Source: Acidobacteriota bacterium
GTDB taxonomy: Bacteria > Acidobacteriota > Terriglobia > Terriglobales > Acidobacteriaceae
Direction: 5' to 3'
DNA: 64,000 nt
Assembly: GCA_021846985.1 (NCBI GenBank)
Contig: JAJZVX010000018.1
Span: 297-64,296, forward strand
Below, in pieces: positions 1,686 through 9,446 of the stretch (positions are counted from its first letter, which is position 1; every line of letters starts with the position of its first letter). The translations under genes and the position numbers were made by a program. Below the pieces are notes generated by a model that was given only the letters and a program-made list of their open reading frames with translations, did not search any database and had not been told where the DNA came from.

Positions 1686-3506
1686 ATGACTATGACAGAA
1701 CGCAAATCGCTTCGAAGCGCTGTGTGGGGACGTTCCGTCCTCGTCGCAGGCGCACTCCTCCTCTTCGCCAGTGCCGCCTTTGCTGGCGGCCGGGGAAAAA
1801 TGGCCCCTGATCTCGCGCGCAAGAACTCTGCCGATCAGGTCGATATCATCGTGCAGTACAACCAGGCGCCCACCTCAGCCCGCCACCAGAGAACCCTGAG
1901 TCATGGCGGAACCTTCCGGCGCAACTTGCCCTATCTGAGAGCAGGCGTTTACCGTCATGTGCCCGCTTCCGCGCTCACTGAAATCGCCAACTATCCCGAT
2001 GTGGCCCACGTCTCCATCGACCATCGAATTCATGCGGCCGGCAACACGCCCATCCTGCTCGACTACCACAACGAAACCATCGGCACGGCCGCCGCGGGCT
2101 CCTATGGTTTCGATGGCACTGGCGTCGGTGTCGCTATTATCGACAGCGGCCTTTCCTCCGTGGACGATCTTGCCAACGCGCACGTCGTTTACAGTCAGGA
2201 CTTTGTCGGCGACAACGGCGGCAGCGCTACCGACCTTTACGGCCATGGCACCCACGTTGCCGGAATCATCGCCGGCGGCGGCCAGGATTCCACCGGTCCG
2301 CAGGATTCCTACACCTTCAAGGGCATCGCCCCCGGCGTCAATCTCATCAACCTCCGCGCCCTCGACGCCAACGGCGACGGAACGGACAGCAACGTCATTG
2401 CCGCTATTCAAACCGCCATCCAGCTCAAGGATACCTACAACATCCGCATCATCAGCCTCTCGGTGGGACGGGGCGTTTTTGAGAGCTACACGCAGGACCC
2501 GCTCTGCCAGGCTGTCGAACAGGCATGGCAGGCTGGCATCCTCGTCGTTGTCGCCGCCGGAAACGAAGGCCGCAACAACTCCGCCAACAACAACGGCTAT
2601 GGAACCATCACCGCCCCCGGCAACGACCCCTACGTCCTTACCGTCGGCGCCATGAACACCCTGGGAACCGCCGATCGCACCGACGACATTCCCACCAGCT
2701 ACACCTCGCGGGGACCCACGCTCTTTGATCAGGTGGTGAAGCCCGATCTCGTGGCCCCCGGCAACCTGATCGTCTCTCTCTACCGGCCCGCTGAGACGCT
2801 GGTGCAGGAACTGCCGAGCAACATCGTCCCTCTCTCCCTTTATCAACCCAACGGTGGCGCCGTTGCCTCGCCCAGCTACTTCATCCTGAGCGGAACCAGC
2901 ATGGCCACGCCGATGGTGAGCGCCGCGGCGGCACTCATGCTGCAACAGAACCCCAGCCTGACCCCTGATCAGATCAAGGCGCGGCTCATGATTACGGCCT
3001 GGAAAAACTTCATTCCGTACAGCACGGCCACTGATCCCACCACGGGCATCACCTATAACCTCGAAGCTGATCTCTTCACGGTCGGCGCCGGCTACCTCGA
3101 CATCCAGGCGGCCTTGAACGACACCGACCTCGCTCCCGCCACTGCCGGCAGCGCCATGTCTCCCTACGCCTCTATCGACGCCAACGGCAACATCGTCATC
3201 GCCAACCGCAGTTCGTCTGCTAGCTCCATCGTCTGGGGCACCAGCATTGTCTGGGGCACCTCGGGCGTCTGGAGCAACAGCATCGTCTGGGGCACCAGCA
3301 TCGTATGGGGCACCAGCACGACGGGCGAATCCATCGTCTGGGGCACCAACACGCTGGCTCCCGACTCCATCGTCTGGGGCACCAGCATCGTCTGGGGCAC
3401 CGGCACCAGCAGTGGCCAGAGCATCGTCTGGGGCACCGGATCCAGTAGCGGCCAGAGCATCGTCTGGGGCACCGATACGGCCCTTGGCGCAACCGACCTT
3501 CCGTAG
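1686..3506 (+). CDS. Secreted S8 (subtilisin/AprX-like) serine peptidase with C-terminal tandem SIVWGT repeats
   Basis: Signal peptide and I9-like prodomain. Catalytic triad motifs GVAIIDSG, YGHGTHVAG and SGTSMATP; oxyanion motif VVAAGN. Confidence 0.95.
   Translation: MTMTERKSLRSAVWGRSVLVAGALLLFASAAFAGGRGKMAPDLARKNSADQVDIIVQYNQAPTSARHQRTLSHGGTFRRNLPYLRAGVYRHVPASALTEIANYPDVAHVSIDHRIHAAGNTPILLDYHNETIGTAAAGSYGFDGTGVGVAIIDSGLSSVDDLANAHVVYSQDFVGDNGGSATDLYGHGTHVAGIIAGGGQDSTGPQDSYTFKGIAPGVNLINLRALDANGDGTDSNVIAAIQTAIQLKDTYNIRIISLSVGRGVFESYTQDPLCQAVEQAWQAGILVVVAAGNEGRNNSANNNGYGTITAPGNDPYVLTVGAMNTLGTADRTDDIPTSYTSRGPTLFDQVVKPDLVAPGNLIVSLYRPAETLVQELPSNIVPLSLYQPNGGAVASPSYFILSGTSMATPMVSAAAALMLQQNPSLTPDQIKARLMITAWKNFIPYSTATDPTTGITYNLEADLFTVGAGYLDIQAALNDTDLAPATAGSAMSPYASIDANGNIVIANRSSSASSIVWGTSIVWGTSGVWSNSIVWGTSIVWGTSTTGESIVWGTNTLAPDSIVWGTSIVWGTGTSSGQSIVWGTGSSSGQSIVWGTDTALGATDLP
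3225..3473 (+). repeat. Coding tandem repeat: 9 exact SIVWGT hexapeptides plus 1 degenerate (SGVWSN), with short S/T/G-rich spacers
   Basis: Read directly from the translation. DNA unit is (tcc/agc)at(c/t)gt(c/a)tggggcacc, with synonymous variation. Confidence 0.97.
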
Positions 3507-3525
3507 CCCACCTTACCCCGTAGGC

Positions 3526-3562
3526 GAAGGGCCGGCCGCGTCAACAGCGCGGCCGGCCTTTC
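3526..3562 (+). terminator. Probable intrinsic terminator after the S8 gene
   Basis: GAAGGGCCGGCCGCG-tcaacag-CGCGGCCGGCCTTTC, a 15-bp stem (one G-U pair) ending in a short T run. Confidence 0.7.
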
Positions 3563-3690
3563 GTAGGACTCCCGAATCTCCGCTCCACATCCTGCCGCTT
3601 TGTTGCTATCCTCTACTCTTGCTCCCGTCGGCAGGCTCTTTCGGCCCGCTGTTGTTTGCGCGCCGCTGTCGACACATCGCCAGAAGAGAG

Positions 3691-5091
3691 ATGCAAGCCG
3701 ACCCATCCCGCTCCGGTTCCGCGCTGCCCGGTCTCCCTCCGCACCCGGATGCCGGCCCATTCCGCCTCCTCGACACCATCGCCGAAACTGGGCATGGCAT
3801 CCTCTACCGCGCCGAACGCGCCCACGACTTCACCCAGGCCGTCGCCGTCAAACTTCCGCGCCTCCAACCGTCTGACGGCGCCGTTGCGCTCCAGGCCGCC
3901 ACCGACCGCCTGCGCGACGAACAGCGCTCTCTCGCCCCGCTCCAGCACCCCGCCATCGCCGCTCTCGTCGATGCCTCCTTTGATGCCCGGCCCCTGCCCT
4001 GGCTAGCCGTCGAATACATCGAGGGTCTGCCCCTCGACCGGTATTGCGCACTCGAGCGCCTCGGCCTGCGCCAGCGCATCGCGCTGGTCTGCGCCGTTCT
4101 TGCCGCCCTGGATCACGCCCACCAGCGCCTCGTGGTGCACGGCGATCTGAACTTCAGCCGCATCCTCATTGACCGCGACGGCCTTCCCCATCTTGTTGGT
4201 TTCCGGCCCTCTCGCGAACTGCTGCACCCTCCCGGCGCTGAGGATCTTTCATTTGTCTCTCCCGAGAGCCTGGCCGGCCAGCCGCTTACCACTGCGACCG
4301 ACATCTATACCGCCGGTCTCCTGCTCTGCCTTCTGCTCACCGGCAAGCATCCTTTCGAGCAAGATCGCGGCGACTCCCGGCGCTGGGCTCACGCCATTCT
4401 CTGTTTGCCTCCTGCACGGCCCAGCTCGCTTTGCTCCGGCGCTCTCGGCCGCAGCGTTCGCGGCGATCTCGACGCCATCCTCCTGCGCGCGTTGGCCCCG
4501 CTCCCCGCCGCCCGCTACGCCACTGCCGGCGCCTTTGCCGAGGATCTGCAGGCCTTTCTCCACGGCCTGCCCGTGGAAGCACGCAACGGAGGTCCGCTCT
4601 ACCGGCTGCGGCGCTTTGCCGCGCGCAACCGGTTGCTATCCTCCGCCGCTGCGCTTCTCCTGCTCGTGCTTCTTGCTTCCGCGGCCGTGGTGGCTCGCCA
4701 GGGCATCCAGGCCCGCCGCGCCCGCATCCAGGCGCAGGCCCGCCTCCACGACATGCAGCGCCTCACCGGATCTCTCCTCGGGCAGTTCTCTTCCGATCTC
4801 GACCGTCTTCCGGGTTCCGCACCCGTTGAGAATCTCCTCCTTGCGCGCGCCGGCCAAACCATGGATCAGCTCGCCCGGCAGGCCGGCAACGACGCTGTTC
4901 TTCGTCAGGAGATCGCCCGGGAGTATCTGCGCCTGGGCCAGCTGCTGCTGCGTGAGGGCGATGCCGCCGCGGCGCAGGCCGCGGCGCGCAAGGGCCTTGA
5001 CGTCCTGCAGCCTCTGCCCGCCTCGCGGCGCGCCGCCGCGCCTGTCCAGGGCATTGCCGAGCAACTCGTCCGGCTGCGTGATGGCCGCTGA
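3691..5091 (+). CDS. Ser/Thr kinase-like pseudokinase with TM helix and short TPR-like tail
   Basis: ATG at 3691 after AGAAGAGAG. The kinase fold is recognisable (VAVK, VEYIEG, SPE, TDIY), but the Gly loop reads IAETGHG, the catalytic loop HGDLNFSR, and DFG is replaced by VGF. TM segment LLSSAAALLLLVLLASAAVVA. Confidence 0.85.
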   Translation: MQADPSRSGSALPGLPPHPDAGPFRLLDTIAETGHGILYRAERAHDFTQAVAVKLPRLQPSDGAVALQAATDRLRDEQRSLAPLQHPAIAALVDASFDARPLPWLAVEYIEGLPLDRYCALERLGLRQRIALVCAVLAALDHAHQRLVVHGDLNFSRILIDRDGLPHLVGFRPSRELLHPPGAEDLSFVSPESLAGQPLTTATDIYTAGLLLCLLLTGKHPFEQDRGDSRRWAHAILCLPPARPSSLCSGALGRSVRGDLDAILLRALAPLPAARYATAGAFAEDLQAFLHGLPVEARNGGPLYRLRRFAARNRLLSSAAALLLLVLLASAAVVARQGIQARRARIQAQARLHDMQRLTGSLLGQFSSDLDRLPGSAPVENLLLARAGQTMDQLARQAGNDAVLRQEIAREYLRLGQLLLREGDAAAAQAAARKGLDVLQPLPASRRAAAPVQGIAEQLVRLRDGR

Positions 5092-5171
5092 CAGCTCTCT
5101 CCTTCGCCTGTTTCCGGAAACTCACGCCGCAAGGGCATCCCCGAGCAGGCGTATCCTTACCCGCGCCGCCG

Positions 5172-7832
5172 TCACTGCCCCCCGTGCAGGCTCCTCAATA
5201 GACTCTCTGCGCCGCGCCGGATTCGCCTTCCGGCCTGCATTCCCAGGATCTTCGTCACCGAAGCCCGCGCCGCCGCCGTCTCATGACAGGCCGCCTGCGC
5301 CCGCGCCAGCGTCAACAAAAACTCCGGATCAGAGCCGTGAATCAGCGCCACGGCCCGCGACGAAAACGCCAGCGCCCGGCGCGGATCGCGCAGGCCCTTG
5401 ACTTGTGCGTCCAGCAGGTACATCGCCGCGCTGTCCAGATCGTCCGGCGAGGCTTCCGCGCTCTGCGCCAGTTGCAGCGAGAGCGCCAGGCCCTTACGCT
5501 CGTGCTCCTCTGCCTGCGCCGTCTGCTTCAGTCGTTCTTCCACACGAGCCCGCGCGATCAGAGTTTCCGCATAGTGCTCCTGCCAGATGCGATTGCCCGG
5601 GTCGCTCCGCAGCGCGGTGGTGAGCACTTCCGTCAGCCGCTCGTAGTCCCGCTGCGCCGCATTCCAATCCGACAGCGCCTCGTGGCTCTCGCCCTCGTCC
5701 AGGTAGATGCTCGCCATGTCCTGCTTCAGGCGCATGTCCAGCGGATCCTTTTCCGCATAAGACCCCATCACCTGCCGCGCCTGTTCCAGTTCCTTCAGGG
5801 ATTCCCTGAACTTGCCTTCGTAAAAATAGCAGTCGCCCAGTTTCTGGCGCACCACGCCCCGCAGCCGCTTGATCGAAACCGGCGCGTTTGGAATGCGCCC
5901 CAGCATCGCCAGCGCCTCTTCATATTGCTTCTGCGCCGTCTCGGGCTGCGCCTCGCTCAGCAGGTTGGCGATCTTGATGTCTCCCAAGGCAATCGACCGC
6001 ACCGCCCGCGTATCCTGCGCGTTCCGCGCCAGCGCCGCCCGGCTTTGCCCGATGGCTCGCTGGTAGTTCTCGATTGCCTTGTCCGTATCCCCAAGGCTCG
6101 ACGCTCCGTGCAATCCATACTCGTCGCCCATCAGCGCATACAGCGTCGCTGCTTCGTGCAAATCGGCGGGCTCGGCCCCTGGCGCGCTCAGCAGCTTTTC
6201 GCAAAGCGCCGCCGCCGCCCGCGCATGGTCCAGCGCCTGCTTCGTCTGCCCGTCGCCAAACTCGATCTCGCTCAGGCTGCGCTGGGCAAACTCCGCGTGC
6301 CGCAGCGCCCGGGCATCGTCCGGATGCAGGCGCAGCGCATCTTCCGCAATCGAAATCGCCCGCTCCACCGAACGGATCGCCTCCGGCGCCTCTCCCAGGT
6401 TGTCCTGGTAAGGACTGCCCATCACGTTGCCCATCCGCGTGTACGCATTCGCCAGGTCGAGCTCAAAGTCGAAATCGCCCCGCGCGTTCTGCGCCATCCC
6501 GTCCAAAAACTCCAGCGCCTCCGCCGCCACTTTGCGTTGCGTCTCCGTTGCTCCCGGCACTTCGCCCAGGCGGTCGTAGAAGTCCGTCACCAGAAATGTC
6601 GCCAGCAGCCGCACATTCCGCATCTCTTCGCGCGCCCGCAGCTCCTCGCCGCGTGCCGTCCTCGCGGCCCGCAGCGAGATGTCCGCGCCGGCCGCCAGCA
6701 CCGCCAGCAGTGCGGCGCCGGCCACCACCCGCTCCCGGTTGCGCCGCAGCAGCTTCCACGCCCGGTAAAGCCGCGCCGTCTTCCGTGCCCGCACCGGCCG
6801 ATGCTCCATCCACCGCTGCAGTTCCGCCGCCAGCTCCGTGACCGTTGCGTAGCGACCCTCCGGCTCGGCGCGCATTGCCTTGCCCGCAATGGCCCGCAGA
6901 TCCTCGTCTTCGATCTCCGCCCAATCCGCGGAGGCTGTCTCTTCGCCGGCCGCGCCGGTTCTGAAGGCGAGTGTTGTCGCCGCCGCTGGAACATGGCCCG
7001 TCAGCAGCCGGTAGAGCGCCACGCCCAGCGAATAAACATCTGACGCCGCCGTGCATGGCTCCCCCCGCCTCTGCTCCGGGCTGGCGTACTGCGGCGTAAA
7101 GGCCGCCATCGGCGCCGCCTGTTCTTCTCCGCCCGCCAGCAGAGTGGCGGCGCCAAAGTCCAGCAGCTTCACTTGCCCATCCGCGGTCACCAGCACATTC
7201 CCGGGCTTCAGGTCGCCGTGCAGAATGCGGTTCCGGTGCGCATAGGCCACCGCGTCACACAGATCCAGGAACAGGCGCGCGATCTCGCGCGCACGCAAGC
7301 CCGCGCGCTCGCAGTATTGGTCCAGCCGCTCGCCGCGGATGTACTCCATCACAAAGTACGGCTCGCCCTCATCGCTCACGCCGCCGTCGAGCAGGCGTGC
7401 AATGTGTGCATGCCGCAGCACCGCCAGCGCCCGCCGCTCCTCCAGGAAGCGCTCCTGCAACTGCGGGGAGTAGAGCCGCGTCCCCACCACCTTCAGCGCC
7501 ACCTGCTCGTCGTCGCCGCCCGCGCCCGAGGCGCGTACGGCCGCGTACACGGCCCCCATTCCGCCGCGCCCAATGAGCGCAACCACCCGGTAGCTGCCCA
7601 GCGTCCTTCCCATGCAGGGATGCGCCGCCGTCTTCCGCGCGCCTTCCGGCGGGCGTTCCACCTCTTGCGCTGAGGCCACCAGCGACAGGACATCCTCAGC
7701 CAGGCTCGCATCCTCGCCGCACCAGGCCCGCACGCTGGCCGTGCGTTCCTCCGCCGTGCCCTCCAGATCCAAAGCGCGGTGAAAGATCTCTTCCACCCGC
7801 CGCCAGCGATCCGCCGCCTCCGCGTCCATCAT
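5172..7832 (-). CDS. Hanks-type Ser/Thr protein kinase with N-terminal helical domain, TM segment and C-terminal TPR-like repeats
   Basis: Intact motifs IGRGGMGAVY, VALK, HGDLKPGN, DFG and TPQYASPE; long alpha-helical repeat C-terminus. Confidence 0.93.
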   Translation of the reverse strand: MMDAEAADRWRRVEEIFHRALDLEGTAEERTASVRAWCGEDASLAEDVLSLVASAQEVERPPEGARKTAAHPCMGRTLGSYRVVALIGRGGMGAVYAAVRASGAGGDDEQVALKVVGTRLYSPQLQERFLEERRALAVLRHAHIARLLDGGVSDEGEPYFVMEYIRGERLDQYCERAGLRAREIARLFLDLCDAVAYAHRNRILHGDLKPGNVLVTADGQVKLLDFGAATLLAGGEEQAAPMAAFTPQYASPEQRRGEPCTAASDVYSLGVALYRLLTGHVPAAATTLAFRTGAAGEETASADWAEIEDEDLRAIAGKAMRAEPEGRYATVTELAAELQRWMEHRPVRARKTARLYRAWKLLRRNRERVVAGAALLAVLAAGADISLRAARTARGEELRAREEMRNVRLLATFLVTDFYDRLGEVPGATETQRKVAAEALEFLDGMAQNARGDFDFELDLANAYTRMGNVMGSPYQDNLGEAPEAIRSVERAISIAEDALRLHPDDARALRHAEFAQRSLSEIEFGDGQTKQALDHARAAAALCEKLLSAPGAEPADLHEAATLYALMGDEYGLHGASSLGDTDKAIENYQRAIGQSRAALARNAQDTRAVRSIALGDIKIANLLSEAQPETAQKQYEEALAMLGRIPNAPVSIKRLRGVVRQKLGDCYFYEGKFRESLKELEQARQVMGSYAEKDPLDMRLKQDMASIYLDEGESHEALSDWNAAQRDYERLTEVLTTALRSDPGNRIWQEHYAETLIARARVEERLKQTAQAEEHERKGLALSLQLAQSAEASPDDLDSAAMYLLDAQVKGLRDPRRALAFSSRAVALIHGSDPEFLLTLARAQAACHETAAARASVTKILGMQAGRRIRRGAESLLRSLHGGQ

Positions 7833-8413
7833 GCCCAGCTCGCCGCACCCGACAATTCCCGGTACAGCCAGCTCCGCGCAAAGCGCAGGTCCCGCTCCGC
7901 GGTCGCCGTTGAAATTCCCAGCGCCTCCGCCGCTTCTCCGGTCGTAAAGGACAGAAAAAAGCGCATCTCAATCAGCCGCGCCTTCCGCGCATCCACGGCC
8001 TCCAGCCGCTCCAGTGCCCGGTTCAGGTCCACGATCCGCTCCGCCTCCGCCCCGATGAACGCCATGTCGTCGGAAAGTTCCATGCGGATCCACTCGCTCC
8101 CTCCGCGGTGCTTGGCCAGCCGCGCCCGCGCATAATCCGTAAGGATGTTGCGCATCAGCATGGCTGCAAACGTATAGAAGTGTTCGCGGTCGTTCCAGCT
8201 TGCTTTCTTCTGCCGCACCAGGCGCAGATACACCTCGTTCAGCAGCGCCGTTGGTTGCAGCGTATGGTCCTCCCGCTCGCGGCGCATCAGCCCCATGGCA
8301 ATCCGGTGCAGTTGTTCGTAGATCAGCGGAGCCAGGCTCTCGAAGGCCGCGGCATCGCCCTCGTGCCAGCGTTGCAGCAGTTGGGTAATTTCACCTTGCT
8401 TTTCTGGACTCAT
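7829..8413 (-). CDS. ECF sigma factor of the kinase-associated type (TIGR02999/ECF43-like)
   Basis: MSPEKQGEITQLLQRW...DHTLQPTALLNEVYLRL...HFYTFAAMLMRNILTDYAR...KHRGG. Its stop overlaps the kinase ATG (ATGA). Start placed at ATG 8413 rather than 8557. Confidence 0.93.
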   Translation of the reverse strand: MSPEKQGEITQLLQRWHEGDAAAFESLAPLIYEQLHRIAMGLMRREREDHTLQPTALLNEVYLRLVRQKKASWNDREHFYTFAAMLMRNILTDYARARLAKHRGGSEWIRMELSDDMAFIGAEAERIVDLNRALERLEAVDARKARLIEMRFFLSFTTGEAAEALGISTATAERDLRFARSWLYRELSGAASWA

Positions 8414-8612
8414 GGCGGGGTTTTGAGTGCCTTTAGTATGCAGGAATCCGGCTGGCCTTGCCAAAGCCTTTGTTGCGGCTTGCTTCCCTTTGACCAAAAA
8501 CCTCTTCCCCGTGAGGGAGTTTTCCCGCTTTTGCCGCTGTACTGGGCAAACGGCCACGCCGCCACCCCCGGCGGCGAGGCGTCAACGTCAGGCGCTGGGA
8601 GTGAGAAATCAC

Positions 8613-9157
8613 ATGGCAAGGGTAGAAAAGCGGCTTCGGCATCTCTTTGTGCGGTTCATGCTGGCGGGGTTTCTATTGGGCGCGGCCGCCACGGCTCAGG
8701 CGGGCGCACAGGCAACGGCGACGGCACCTTCCAGCCGGCGGTGAGTTCCGATACCGGCATCTCCGGCCTCTACCAGGGCCTCATCTACCTGGCGCCGGCC
8801 AGGACCACCGCAGACGGCCGCACCGATCTTGTGGCCTTAAGCGCCTCGACCAATGATCAGCTCGTAGAAACGCTCTGCAACGGCCGCACCCAGCAGGTGA
8901 GCTTCTCCAGCCTGGCCATTCCCGGTCCAACTGCGCAGCATAACGTGGTCGCCTCCTATGCCGGAGACTCCGCGTATGCCGCTTCCGTCTCGCCTGCGCT
9001 CGGCGCCTGTGGCGGCGGCTCTTCGAGTTCAACCTCCACCGGCTCCGGCGGCACGCCTCTGGGAACCAGCTCCGTGTCTGTCTCCGCTACCACATCCACC
9101 ACGGTTGGCGGCAGCACCACGCAGAGCGCGCTCCTTACCATCACCATCATCCAATAG
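8613..9157 (+). pseudogene. Internally deleted, frameshifted remnant of an FG-GAP/VCBS plus Ig-like (Big_3-type) surface protein
   Basis: The signal-peptide frame (MARVEK...LLGAAATAQAGAQ) stops at 8744. An overlapping frame carries GNGDGTFQPAVS, DGRTDLVA and HNVVASYAGDSAYAASVS, and ends ...LLTITIIQ. Confidence 0.65.
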
Positions 9158-9239: not shown

Positions 9240-9446
9240 ATGAACTCCACTCCGGAACAACGCCGCTGGCAGCTGGTGGAATCCATCTTCCACCAGATGG
9301 AAGCTTGCCCGGCGCATCTGCGTGCCGCCCGCCTGCGCGAGATCTGCGCCGGCGACGACGCCCTCGCCCGTGAGGTCGAGTCGCTCCTCGATTGCTCCGA
9401 GCGTCTGCGTGCCGCTTCCAATCCGCCCGCCCGCTCCGCGCCGTAA
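9240..9446 (+). CDS. 68-aa stand-alone homologue of the N-terminal helical domain of the neighbouring kinase
   Basis: MNSTPEQRRWQLVESIFHQ...RAARLREICAGDDALAREVESLL aligns by eye with kinase residues RWRRVEEIFHR...RTASVRAWCGEDASLAEDVLSLV. Confidence 0.75.
   Translation: MNSTPEQRRWQLVESIFHQMEACPAHLRAARLREICAGDDALAREVESLLDCSERLRAASNPPARSAP

Follow-up and report, generated by a model that had tools for sequence, protein, structure and literature searches.

A conserved, catalytically degenerate kinase-like protein beside a predicted ECF43-type sigma factor and its long kinase in Acidobacteriota

The DNA studied here, in the following called the window, is a stretch of 64,000 nucleotides from an Acidobacteriota bacterium of the family Acidobacteriaceae (GenBank assembly GCA_021846985.1, contig JAJZVX010000018.1, positions 297 to 64,296). 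It contains a gene for a short kinase-like protein with a single membrane anchor, which is transcribed towards an operon encoding an extracytoplasmic function (ECF) sigma factor and a long Ser/Thr kinase with tetratricopeptide repeats (TPRs). A preliminary description, made from the DNA letters alone, had proposed that the short protein is an intact but dead paralogue of the long kinase and regulates it. Our analysis shows a protein under purifying selection which lacks its catalytic motifs in all eight lineages of its clade and which is tied to the sigma/kinase pair. Most likely, this pseudokinase is a conserved third component of an ECF43-type signalling module and regulates the sigma switch without being an enzyme.

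Results

The locus and the short protein

The genes and other features of the locus are collected in Table 1.

Table 1. Coordinates of the features in the window and of related element copies in other loci
Feature	Coordinates	Strand	Description and basis
Pseudokinase gene	3691-5091	+	466 aa, short membrane-anchored kinase-like partner; open reading frame (ORF), Pfam, orthologues, dN/dS
Pseudokinase domain, residues 22-292	3754-4566	+	Alignments, AlphaFold2 model, Foldseek to PknB and PknS
Gly loop, residues 31-36	3781-3798	+	AETGHG
Beta3 Lys, K54	3850-3852	+	In VAVK
Catalytic loop, residues 150-157	4138-4161	+	HGDLNFSR
Position of DFG, residues 170-172	4198-4206	+	GFR
Pseudokinase transmembrane helix, residues 315-335	4633-4695	+	Kyte-Doolittle, AlphaFold2 model; juxtamembrane motif precedes
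Short helical ectodomain, residues 337-466	4699-5088	+	BLASTP to neighbour, AlphaFold2 model
Long Ser/Thr kinase, active-looking	5172-7832	-	886 aa; Pkinase 141.9 bits and TPR families; PknS-like architecture
ECF sigma factor, kinase-coupled type	7829-8416	-	TIGR02999 197.7 bits (cut-off 126); PF07638; 4-nt overlap with kinase start
Conserved non-coding element of ~60 nt, window copy	8491-8558	-	Upstream of sigma
Element copy, L001	7050-7123
Element copy, L009	5652-5724
Element copy, L012	5774-5841
Element copy, L008	7780-7848
Element copy, L021	12687-12736	-	E 2.7e-5, model trained without L021
Element copy, L024	5839-5892	-	E 0.004
GCATACTGG box	~8437-8446	-	-10-like CATACT
Convergent gap	5092-5171		80 nt
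Palindrome GTTTCCGGAAAC	5110-5121		12 nt, perfect
S8 subtilase	1686-3506	+	Pfam 178.7 bits
FG-GAP-like protein	~8614-9157	+	Secreted, apparently frameshifted
Stand-alone N-terminal helical domain	9240-9446	+	68 aa (MNSTPEQRRWQLVESIFHQ...)

The reading frame of the short protein opens with ATG and has no internal stop. Its G+C content at third codon positions (GC3) is 0.77, and its codon usage correlates with that of the other genes in the window at 0.73 in frame vs 0.33 and 0.12 out of frame, which bears out the intact frame of normal codon bias given in the preliminary description. The Pfam family Pkinase (PF00069) matches residues 48-231 with 65.1 bits (E 9e-18; gathering cut-off 31.7). An AlphaFold2 model built with 61 homologues has a mean predicted local distance difference test score of 92 and a bilobal kinase domain; its top match among PDB structures in Foldseek is the kinase domain of M. 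tuberculosis PknB (E 2e-17; template modelling score, TM-score, on the target 0.82), and PknS (9eed) is also among the top matches. By sequence, the nearest solved structure is Xanthomonas citri PknS (E 1e-26).

The only hydrophobic segment of the protein lies at residues 316-334, with a Kyte-Doolittle maximum of 2.5. In the model it is held by one continuous helix (residues 314-371), which is followed by a bundle of four to five helices (377-463) reaching to the C-terminus. The juxtamembrane motif ahead of the transmembrane segment, LPVEARxGGxxYRxxRFAxRNRL, is invariant across the pseudokinase family, and the ectodomain is homologous to the membrane-proximal helices of the long kinases (BLASTP to residues 391-471 of the neighbour). 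The distal TPR array is absent, with zero TPR matches in Pfam and no Pfam domain besides Pkinase, and Pfam and the alignment to the neighbour agree that the N-terminal helical domain is missing as well. The preliminary description had noted that the N-terminal domain and most TPRs are missing, and this is confirmed.

Catalytic motifs and orthologues

Alignment to the neighbour kinase places AETGHG opposite its Gly loop GRGGMG and HGDLNFSR opposite its catalytic loop HGDLKPGN, so the reported losses of the Gly loop and of the catalytic-loop Lys and Asn hold. The loss of DFG had also been reported, as VGF; the Asp is indeed absent in either register, but the residues that align with D-F-G are G170-F171-R172, and Gly is invariant at the position of the Asp in the aligned members of the pseudokinase family. 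The window's protein does retain K54 (the beta3 Lys), E77 (the alphaC Glu) and D152 (the HxD Asp), and its activation segment has full length. The missing DFG Asp places the protein within the sequence definition of a pseudokinase, which asks that one or more of the beta3 Lys, the HRD Asp and the DFG Asp be lost. Since both metal ligands (the Asn and the DFG Asp) are gone together with the Gly loop, canonical Mg-ATP phosphotransfer is not expected.

Orthologues were gathered by a word-indexed search, by genome and metagenome scans and by an exhaustive profile search. The word-indexed search gave a single near-identical protein, followed by five clusters of proteins 433-456 aa long at 48-55% identity; beyond these clusters the identity falls to 35-39%, a level at which the matches are active TPR kinases. 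The other searches added lineages that include a Terracidiphilus metagenome-assembled genome and the more distant P0122 (41% identity). The profile search returned two representatives of the pseudokinase clade at 50% clustering, after which the scores drop from 723 to ~340 bits. The family is narrow, being found in few acidobacterial lineages from peat, wood and mine drainage (soil/peat Acidobacteria), and the locus is present in metagenomes from mine drainage, sediment and hot springs.

In all eight lineages (41-55% identity), GxGxxG, the catalytic-loop Lys and Asn and the DFG Asp are missing while the reading frame is intact. It follows that the clade descends from an ancestor that was inactive already. 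The lost Gly loop often contains a bulky W, F or Y. Further degradation differs between lineages: the HxD Asp is also replaced (by R, K, A or H) in four of the eight, and three of the eight combine a change of the beta3 Lys to Arg with deletion of the activation segment and APE, the activation-loop deletion being carried by L012, L003 and L008. Equivalents of K54, E77 and D152 are kept in the window and in three other lineages.

Selection on the pseudokinase

The ratio of nonsynonymous to synonymous substitution rates (dN/dS, omega) was calculated by the method of Nei and Gojobori (NG86) for unsaturated pairs only, with dS of 0.34-0.48. The pseudokinase has a ratio of 0.22-0.29, the neighbouring kinase one of 0.26-0.28 and the sigma factor one of 0.17-0.26. 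Within the pseudokinase, omega is 0.14-0.21 in the N-lobe, 0.14-0.26 in the ectodomain and 0.29-0.35 in the C-lobe. Compared with the window, the pseudokinases of other loci are 46-55% identical, the long kinases 51-55% and the sigma factors 70-80%, and the divergence of the pseudokinase hence matches that of the active kinase adjoining it. The pseudokinase is under purifying selection, equal in strength to that on its active neighbour. The comparison of dN/dS across orthologues had been set beforehand as a check on the preliminary description, and it gives no sign of neutral decay; nor were close orthologues with intact motifs found, as eight lineages carry dead motifs.

The sigma factor, the long kinase and the conserved triad

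The long kinase consists of an N-terminal helical domain of ~80 aa, a kinase domain, a transmembrane helix and periplasmic TPRs, and its motifs are complete (GRGGMG, VALK, HGDLKPGN, DFG, SPE). In the sigma factor, region sigma2.2 reads LQPTAL (HTLQPTALLNEVY) in the window and in the orthologues, a non-acidic, Thr-bearing QxTA that was matched by eye. The lack of an acidic DAED, a predicted phospho-acceptor Thr (consensus QTTA/STTA) and the adjoining Hanks-type kinase mark it as a sigma factor of ECF43 type. Sigma factors of this group are inactive until a neighbouring Hanks kinase phosphorylates the Thr in sigma2.2 (PMC13147305, PMC8999054), and they have no anti-sigma factor (PMC8999054).

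The arrangement of sigma factor (-), long kinase (-) and convergent short partner (+) is present in every locus that reaches far enough, including those of the Terracidiphilus genome, L021, L024 and L026; the contig of L012 ends inside the long kinase. Between lineages the sigma factors are 57-80% identical, and the 3' ends of the partner and long-kinase genes are 4-220 nt apart. The genes on the other side of the partner vary and encode an S8 subtilase (in the window), a chaperone-usher pilus, He_PIG proteins of 1,300 aa, NAPRTase or a surface protein of 2,600 aa. As the convergent arrangement is kept across divergent lineages while the flanks change, the pseudokinase is tied to the sigma/kinase pair. 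We therefore consider it very probable that the protein is selected, catalytically degenerate and linked to the module.

The short partners can be defined as proteins of 425-524 aa with one transmembrane helix, a short helical ectodomain and no N-terminal helical domain, which are encoded convergent to a neighbour-like kinase. This describes the proteins of the window, L001, L003, L008, L009/L010, L011, L012, L021, L024, L026 and L027. Absence of the N-terminal domain does not by itself define the family, since P0123, an active kinase of 832 aa with a high profile score, also lacks it and lies outside any triad. The invariant AERxxDFxQ loop between beta2 and beta3, at the position of PknB L33, was considered as a signature of the short partner and rejected, as 19 long active kinases among the top 150 matches carry all five marker residues.

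Origin of the short partner

The pseudokinase and its neighbour are 31% identical over 416 aa in BLASTP (E 9e-39, 137 bits), a similarity that spans the kinase domain, the transmembrane segment and the membrane-proximal helices. The match of the transmembrane and juxtamembrane helices pointed out in the preliminary description is therefore real, but it is a property of the whole family, and other Acidobacteriota kinases are at least as similar to the pseudokinase as the neighbour is; P0007, for instance, scores 227 bits. A neighbour-joining tree on ~370 columns, which is crude and in which long branches could hide an ancient duplication, separates pseudokinases and neighbours into two clades with 100% bootstrap each. 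The two clades are sisters in only 2% of the replicates, and the mean distance between pseudokinase and neighbour is 1.58 vs 1.57 between pseudokinase and other family members. The suggested paralogy to the convergent kinase thus stands at the level of the family, and a tandem duplication of the neighbour as the source of the pseudokinase is rejected. The branching orders within the two clades are roughly congruent, as expected for genes inherited together.

More distant short partners resemble the window's protein in arrangement and differ from it in their active sites. P0140 (459 aa) and P0193 (472 aa) are each convergent to a neighbour-like kinase of 918-964 aa, which is preceded by a PF07638 sigma factor of 195 aa; they form the sister group of the pseudokinase clade in the neighbour-joining tree. 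Relative to the window, the sigma factors of such loci are 57-59% identical, and the long kinase and short partner each ~35%. A third protein, P0121 (524 aa), is convergent to the C-terminus of a neighbour-like kinase on a short contig. All motifs of P0121 are intact (GEGGMS, K, E, HCDIKFSN, DFG, SPE), P0193 differs from intact motifs only by a change of Asn to His, and P0140 has DFE instead of DFG and has lost the alphaC Glu. These loci indicate that the module of sigma factor, long sensor kinase and short sensor-less kinase is older than the pseudokinase state, and that catalytic residues have disappeared step by step from a gene that stayed in place. As intact distant short partners also have neither the N-terminal domain nor the TPRs, these parts are not losses that accompanied the decay of the active site, and their absence is probably ancestral to the short partner.

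Discussion

Proposed mechanism

By analogy with PknS/EcfK and PknT/EcfP, the long TPR sensor kinase would activate the co-transcribed sigma factor by phosphorylation of its Thr. The short partner, having no sensor TPRs and no N-terminal domain, keeps the constrained N-lobe and the juxtamembrane, transmembrane and proximal helices which it has in common with the long kinase. Most likely it joins the long kinase in the membrane and sets its activity or threshold without transfer of phosphate, and the contact would be made through the N-lobe, as in the back-to-back dimer of PknB type, through the transmembrane and proximal helices, or through both. The output would be the level of sigma phosphorylation. 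We give non-catalytic association with the long kinase roughly an even chance (about 0.5) of being how the pseudokinase acts. With regard to the direction of the effect, we lean slightly towards a brake, in which the partner caps the long kinase in unproductive heteromers, and it is nearly as likely that the partner is an allosteric activator, forming the allosteric half of an activating dimer. A stricter form, in which partner and long kinase are an obligate heteromer in the membrane and the dead subunit is an allosteric switch that decides on sigma phosphorylation, is more doubtful and is put forward tentatively.

Residues L33 and D76 of the PknB interface, whose role in PknB and MviN dimers has been described (PMC12599244), align with F47 and D94 of the pseudokinase, both of which are invariant in its family (D94/D76 in the alignment from the structure hit, F47/L33 in our own alignment). 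Several observations weigh against a non-catalytic association with the long kinase, or at least do not favour it. The positions of F47 and D94 are conserved in the whole kinase family and so do not single out a heterodimer interface, and the AERxxDFxQ loop is present in many long active kinases. A partner that was active in its ancestry fits a role as co-kinase or in a cascade as well as an allosteric one. Retention of K54, E77 and D152 means that the window's protein may bind nucleotide or have residual chemistry. All triad loci were retrieved via the pseudokinase, and the locus has no real coverage in three metatranscriptome runs of the same study as the metagenomes. Finally, physical contact, its interface and the sign of its effect are inferred.

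Alternative explanations

The linkage to an active kinase would fit equally well if the long kinase phosphorylated the pseudokinase, which, as a phospho-acceptor or scaffold of the MviN kind, would recruit other proteins and not regulate the kinase. We find this unlikely, as no gene for an FHA-domain protein or other phospho-reader is conserved beside the triad and no conserved cytoplasmic Ser or Thr stands out beyond the core positions of the kinase fold; moreover, the usual acceptor sites, namely the N-terminal tail and the activation segment, are variable, or deleted in three lineages. The same deletion, which includes the P+1/APE region, speaks against a decoy in the manner of an anti-sigma factor, where the dead domain would hold unphosphorylated sigma factor at the membrane and compete with the long kinase. 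Such a decoy would suit the linkage of the gene to the sigma factor, the substrate affinity that a kinase-dead paralogue could retain, and the lack of an anti-sigma factor for ECF43 sigmas (PMC8999054). The partner, however, is without the N-terminal helical domain carried by all long sigma-coupled kinases, and its C-lobe, the substrate-binding part, is the least constrained (see above), so that we regard this explanation as improbable.

Retention of K54, E77 and D152 in the window and three other lineages leaves room for an atypical active enzyme, which, like CASK or SelO, would bind nucleotide and catalyse either Mg-independent phosphotransfer or some different reaction. The sequence GFx in place of DFG is also found in CASK. 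It occurs in a DLHK protein of P. aeruginosa, too (PMC12599244, Table 1). Against this, the same constraint is observed although the catalytic Asp is replaced in half of the eight lineages and three lineages have changed the beta3 Lys to Arg and lost the alphaC Glu or activation segment, and the Gly loop is lost throughout, often to bulky residues; there is accordingly little to recommend an enzymatic role. That the adjacency is fortuitous, with a function unrelated to the sigma/kinase pair, might be argued from the genes being convergent and not co-transcribed, but the convergence persists from 80% down to 57% sigma identity while the other flank is repeatedly replaced, and we hold a chance neighbourhood to be very unlikely. 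Least credible of all, and refuted by the comparison with orthologues, is the idea that a duplicated kinase without a separate function has recently become a pseudogene or is decaying neutrally. The joint loss of several catalytic motifs and the truncated architecture relative to the neighbour would agree with decay. The low dN/dS over dS up to 0.48, the conserved length and architecture, the intact frame in eight lineages down to 41% identity and a divergence equal to that of the active neighbour do not, and the pseudokinase is no duplicate of that neighbour.

Comparison with known systems

PknS/EcfK of X. citri and PknT/EcfP of Vibrio parahaemolyticus have the same core as the window, that is, a sigma factor with a Thr in sigma2.2 and a membrane-bound TPR kinase, and PknS is built from an N-terminal helical extension of 83 aa, a kinase domain, a transmembrane segment and periplasmic TPRs (PMC13147305). 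For neither pair is a third kinase-like component described (PMC13147305, PMC8999054), whereas the window has a conserved, convergent short partner; the word pseudokinase has 0 occurrences in the PknS/EcfK paper (PMC13147305).

Among bacterial pseudokinases, MviN of M. tuberculosis (ActPs3) is comparable in that it, too, is membrane-associated and tied to an active Hanks kinase, PknB (PMC12599244). It forms back-to-back dimers through the N-lobe and has an activation-loop deletion, as L012, L003 and L008 have. However, MviN is actinobacterial, is degraded in all three motifs (VALT; HRD and DFG absent) and occurs as a fusion with the MviN flippase, unlike the window's protein, which keeps K54 and D152, stands alone and derives from an acidobacterial family of TPR kinases. 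EssB/YukC of type VIIb secretion has a similar topology, with a cytoplasmic pseudokinase domain, a single transmembrane helix and an extracellular domain, and is a non-catalytic, dimerising scaffold. EssB/YukC belongs to a secretion apparatus of Firmicutes and has neither an active kinase nor a sigma factor as its counterpart, and we detected no specific sequence relationship of the window's protein to it, the best matches being PknS and PknB. PknB itself forms homodimers of active kinases; the pseudokinase shares its fold and, in residues conserved family-wide, equivalents of L33 and D76.

A review from 2025 names seven families of bacterial pseudokinases (ActPs1-3, GLW, CP1, DYD and DLHK) and also treats EssB/YukC, MviN, SidJ and SelO (PMC12599244). 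Going by the published descriptions, the window's protein has the defining features of none of the seven. ActPs3 proteins have all motifs degraded and a deleted activation loop, whereas the window's acidobacterial copy keeps VAVK, HGD and a full activation segment. All three motifs are substituted in ActPs1, often with no G-helix, whereas K54, E77 and D152 are retained here; ActPs2 has Arg for the beta3 Lys, Asn for the HRD Asp, a deleted DFG and large insertions, in contrast to a protein with K54 and D152 and no large insertions. The GLW family has GLW for HRD and Leu or Trp for the beta3 Lys, as opposed to HGD and K54, and DYD proteins show Arg for the beta3 Lys, no alphaC Glu and the DYD motif, as opposed to K54, E77 and GFR. 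CP1 and DLHK proteins have no transmembrane segment and are fused to a COG3899 ATPase (CP1) or to helicase/DNA2 (DLHK), which distinguishes them from a protein with one such segment and no extra domain. ActPs1, ActPs2 and DYD all come from Actinobacteria or Firmicutes, and for none of the seven families does the review describe a conserved gene module that pairs it with an active kinase (PMC12599244). The review mentions no Acidobacteria, TPR or sigma factors, and a full-text literature search, which did not extend to subscription literature, found nothing linking pseudokinase, Acidobacteria and sigma factor.

The logic of a dead paralogue with a reduced sensor that acts by association is known from eukaryotes. 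Pairs of kinase and pseudokinase are HER2-HER3, LKB1-STRAD and RAF-KSR, and BIR2, a plant regulator of BAK1, has a short ectodomain. Homology to these pairs exists only at the level of the kinase fold, and for the acidobacterial proteins the interaction is a proposed one.

Significance

Pseudokinases as such are known, and what is new, within the literature searched, is a pseudokinase as a conserved third component of a sigma-phosphorylation module. Activation of ECF43-type sigma factors by Ser/Thr phosphorylation is a recently established route, and the versions described have two components, kinase and sigma factor (PMC13147305, PMC8999054). Bacterial pseudokinases have been catalogued and yet are almost unstudied, and the locus offers a compact system of three genes in which to study the control of an active bacterial kinase by a dead one. 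The natural series of intact, half-degraded and dead partners would allow the non-catalytic function to be mapped by swaps of orthologues. Should the obligate heteromer be true, bacteria would possess a kinase/pseudokinase pair hard-wired in the genome, with HER2-HER3 or LKB1-STRAD as analogues, and one family would span an active co-kinase (P0121), half-degraded forms (P0193, P0140) and the pseudokinase. As the family is narrow, the practical impact is mainly conceptual.

A conserved non-coding element and the intergenic regions

A non-coding element with the consensus GTCTAyyCArTrCAGCG..N13..AAyCCCCTCAyGG..AAGrTTTT precedes the partner gene by ~100 nt in six lineages, whose partner proteins are only ~48% identical to one another, and upstream of the sigma gene, on its strand, in three other lineages (L021, L024 and the window). 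When the model is built without the window, the window copy ranks first in the 64 kb, though only with a weak score (E 0.085). A consensus RNA structure is lacking for the element, and Rfam at gathering thresholds has no match anywhere in the window. It is probably a promoter or operator, and its service to either the partner or the sigma gene points to joint control of partner and sigma operon.

Nearly all lineages (besides the window, L001, L003, L008, L010, L011 and L021) share the GCATACTGG box at a distance of 25-40 nt ahead of the sigma start, which suggests a housekeeping-type promoter for the sigma/kinase operon. For the sigma gene the ATG at 8416 was chosen by agreement with orthologues, and the in-frame upstream starts TTG 8493 and GTG 8557 are possible. 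The TTG is preceded by a Shine-Dalgarno-like GGAAGAGG belonging to the conserved element, and the counterpart of this block in L024 stands 8 nt before the ATG of the sigma gene.

A simple scan of 3400-5300 for promoters and terminators found nothing. The gap between the convergent genes is 4-17 nt in several lineages and ~200-220 nt in L003/L006; in the window it contains a perfect palindrome (Table 1), folds no better than shuffled sequence (z -0.45) and has no terminator-like hairpin. With short gaps and no hairpin in the window, overlapping convergent transcription is possible.

Neighbouring genes

The S8 subtilase gene has the same orientation as the pseudokinase gene and ends 184 nt before it, and the C-terminus of its product has ~12 SIVWGT(S/G) repeats encoded near 3150-3480. 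In orthologous triads, genes for pili or giant surface proteins lie at the position of the subtilase.

On the other side of the sigma gene, the apparently frameshifted FG-GAP-like gene has its signal peptide (MARVEKRLRHLFVRFMLAGFLLGAAATAQA) in the frame of ORF 8427-8744 and its body (GNGDGTFQPAV...TITIIQ) in the frame of ORF 8108-9157, and is either a pseudogene or an assembly error. The 68-aa ORF beyond it encodes, on its own, the N-terminal helical domain of the sigma-coupled long kinases. Over 45 aa its product is 42% identical to residues 9-52 of the neighbour kinase, and it matches the long-kinase N-termini of every other locus with E of 1e-5 to 1e-7. No kinase domain follows it, and the other triad loci have no stand-alone copy; it could be what is left of a kinase gene that was lost, or a small protein competing for the binding target of the domain.

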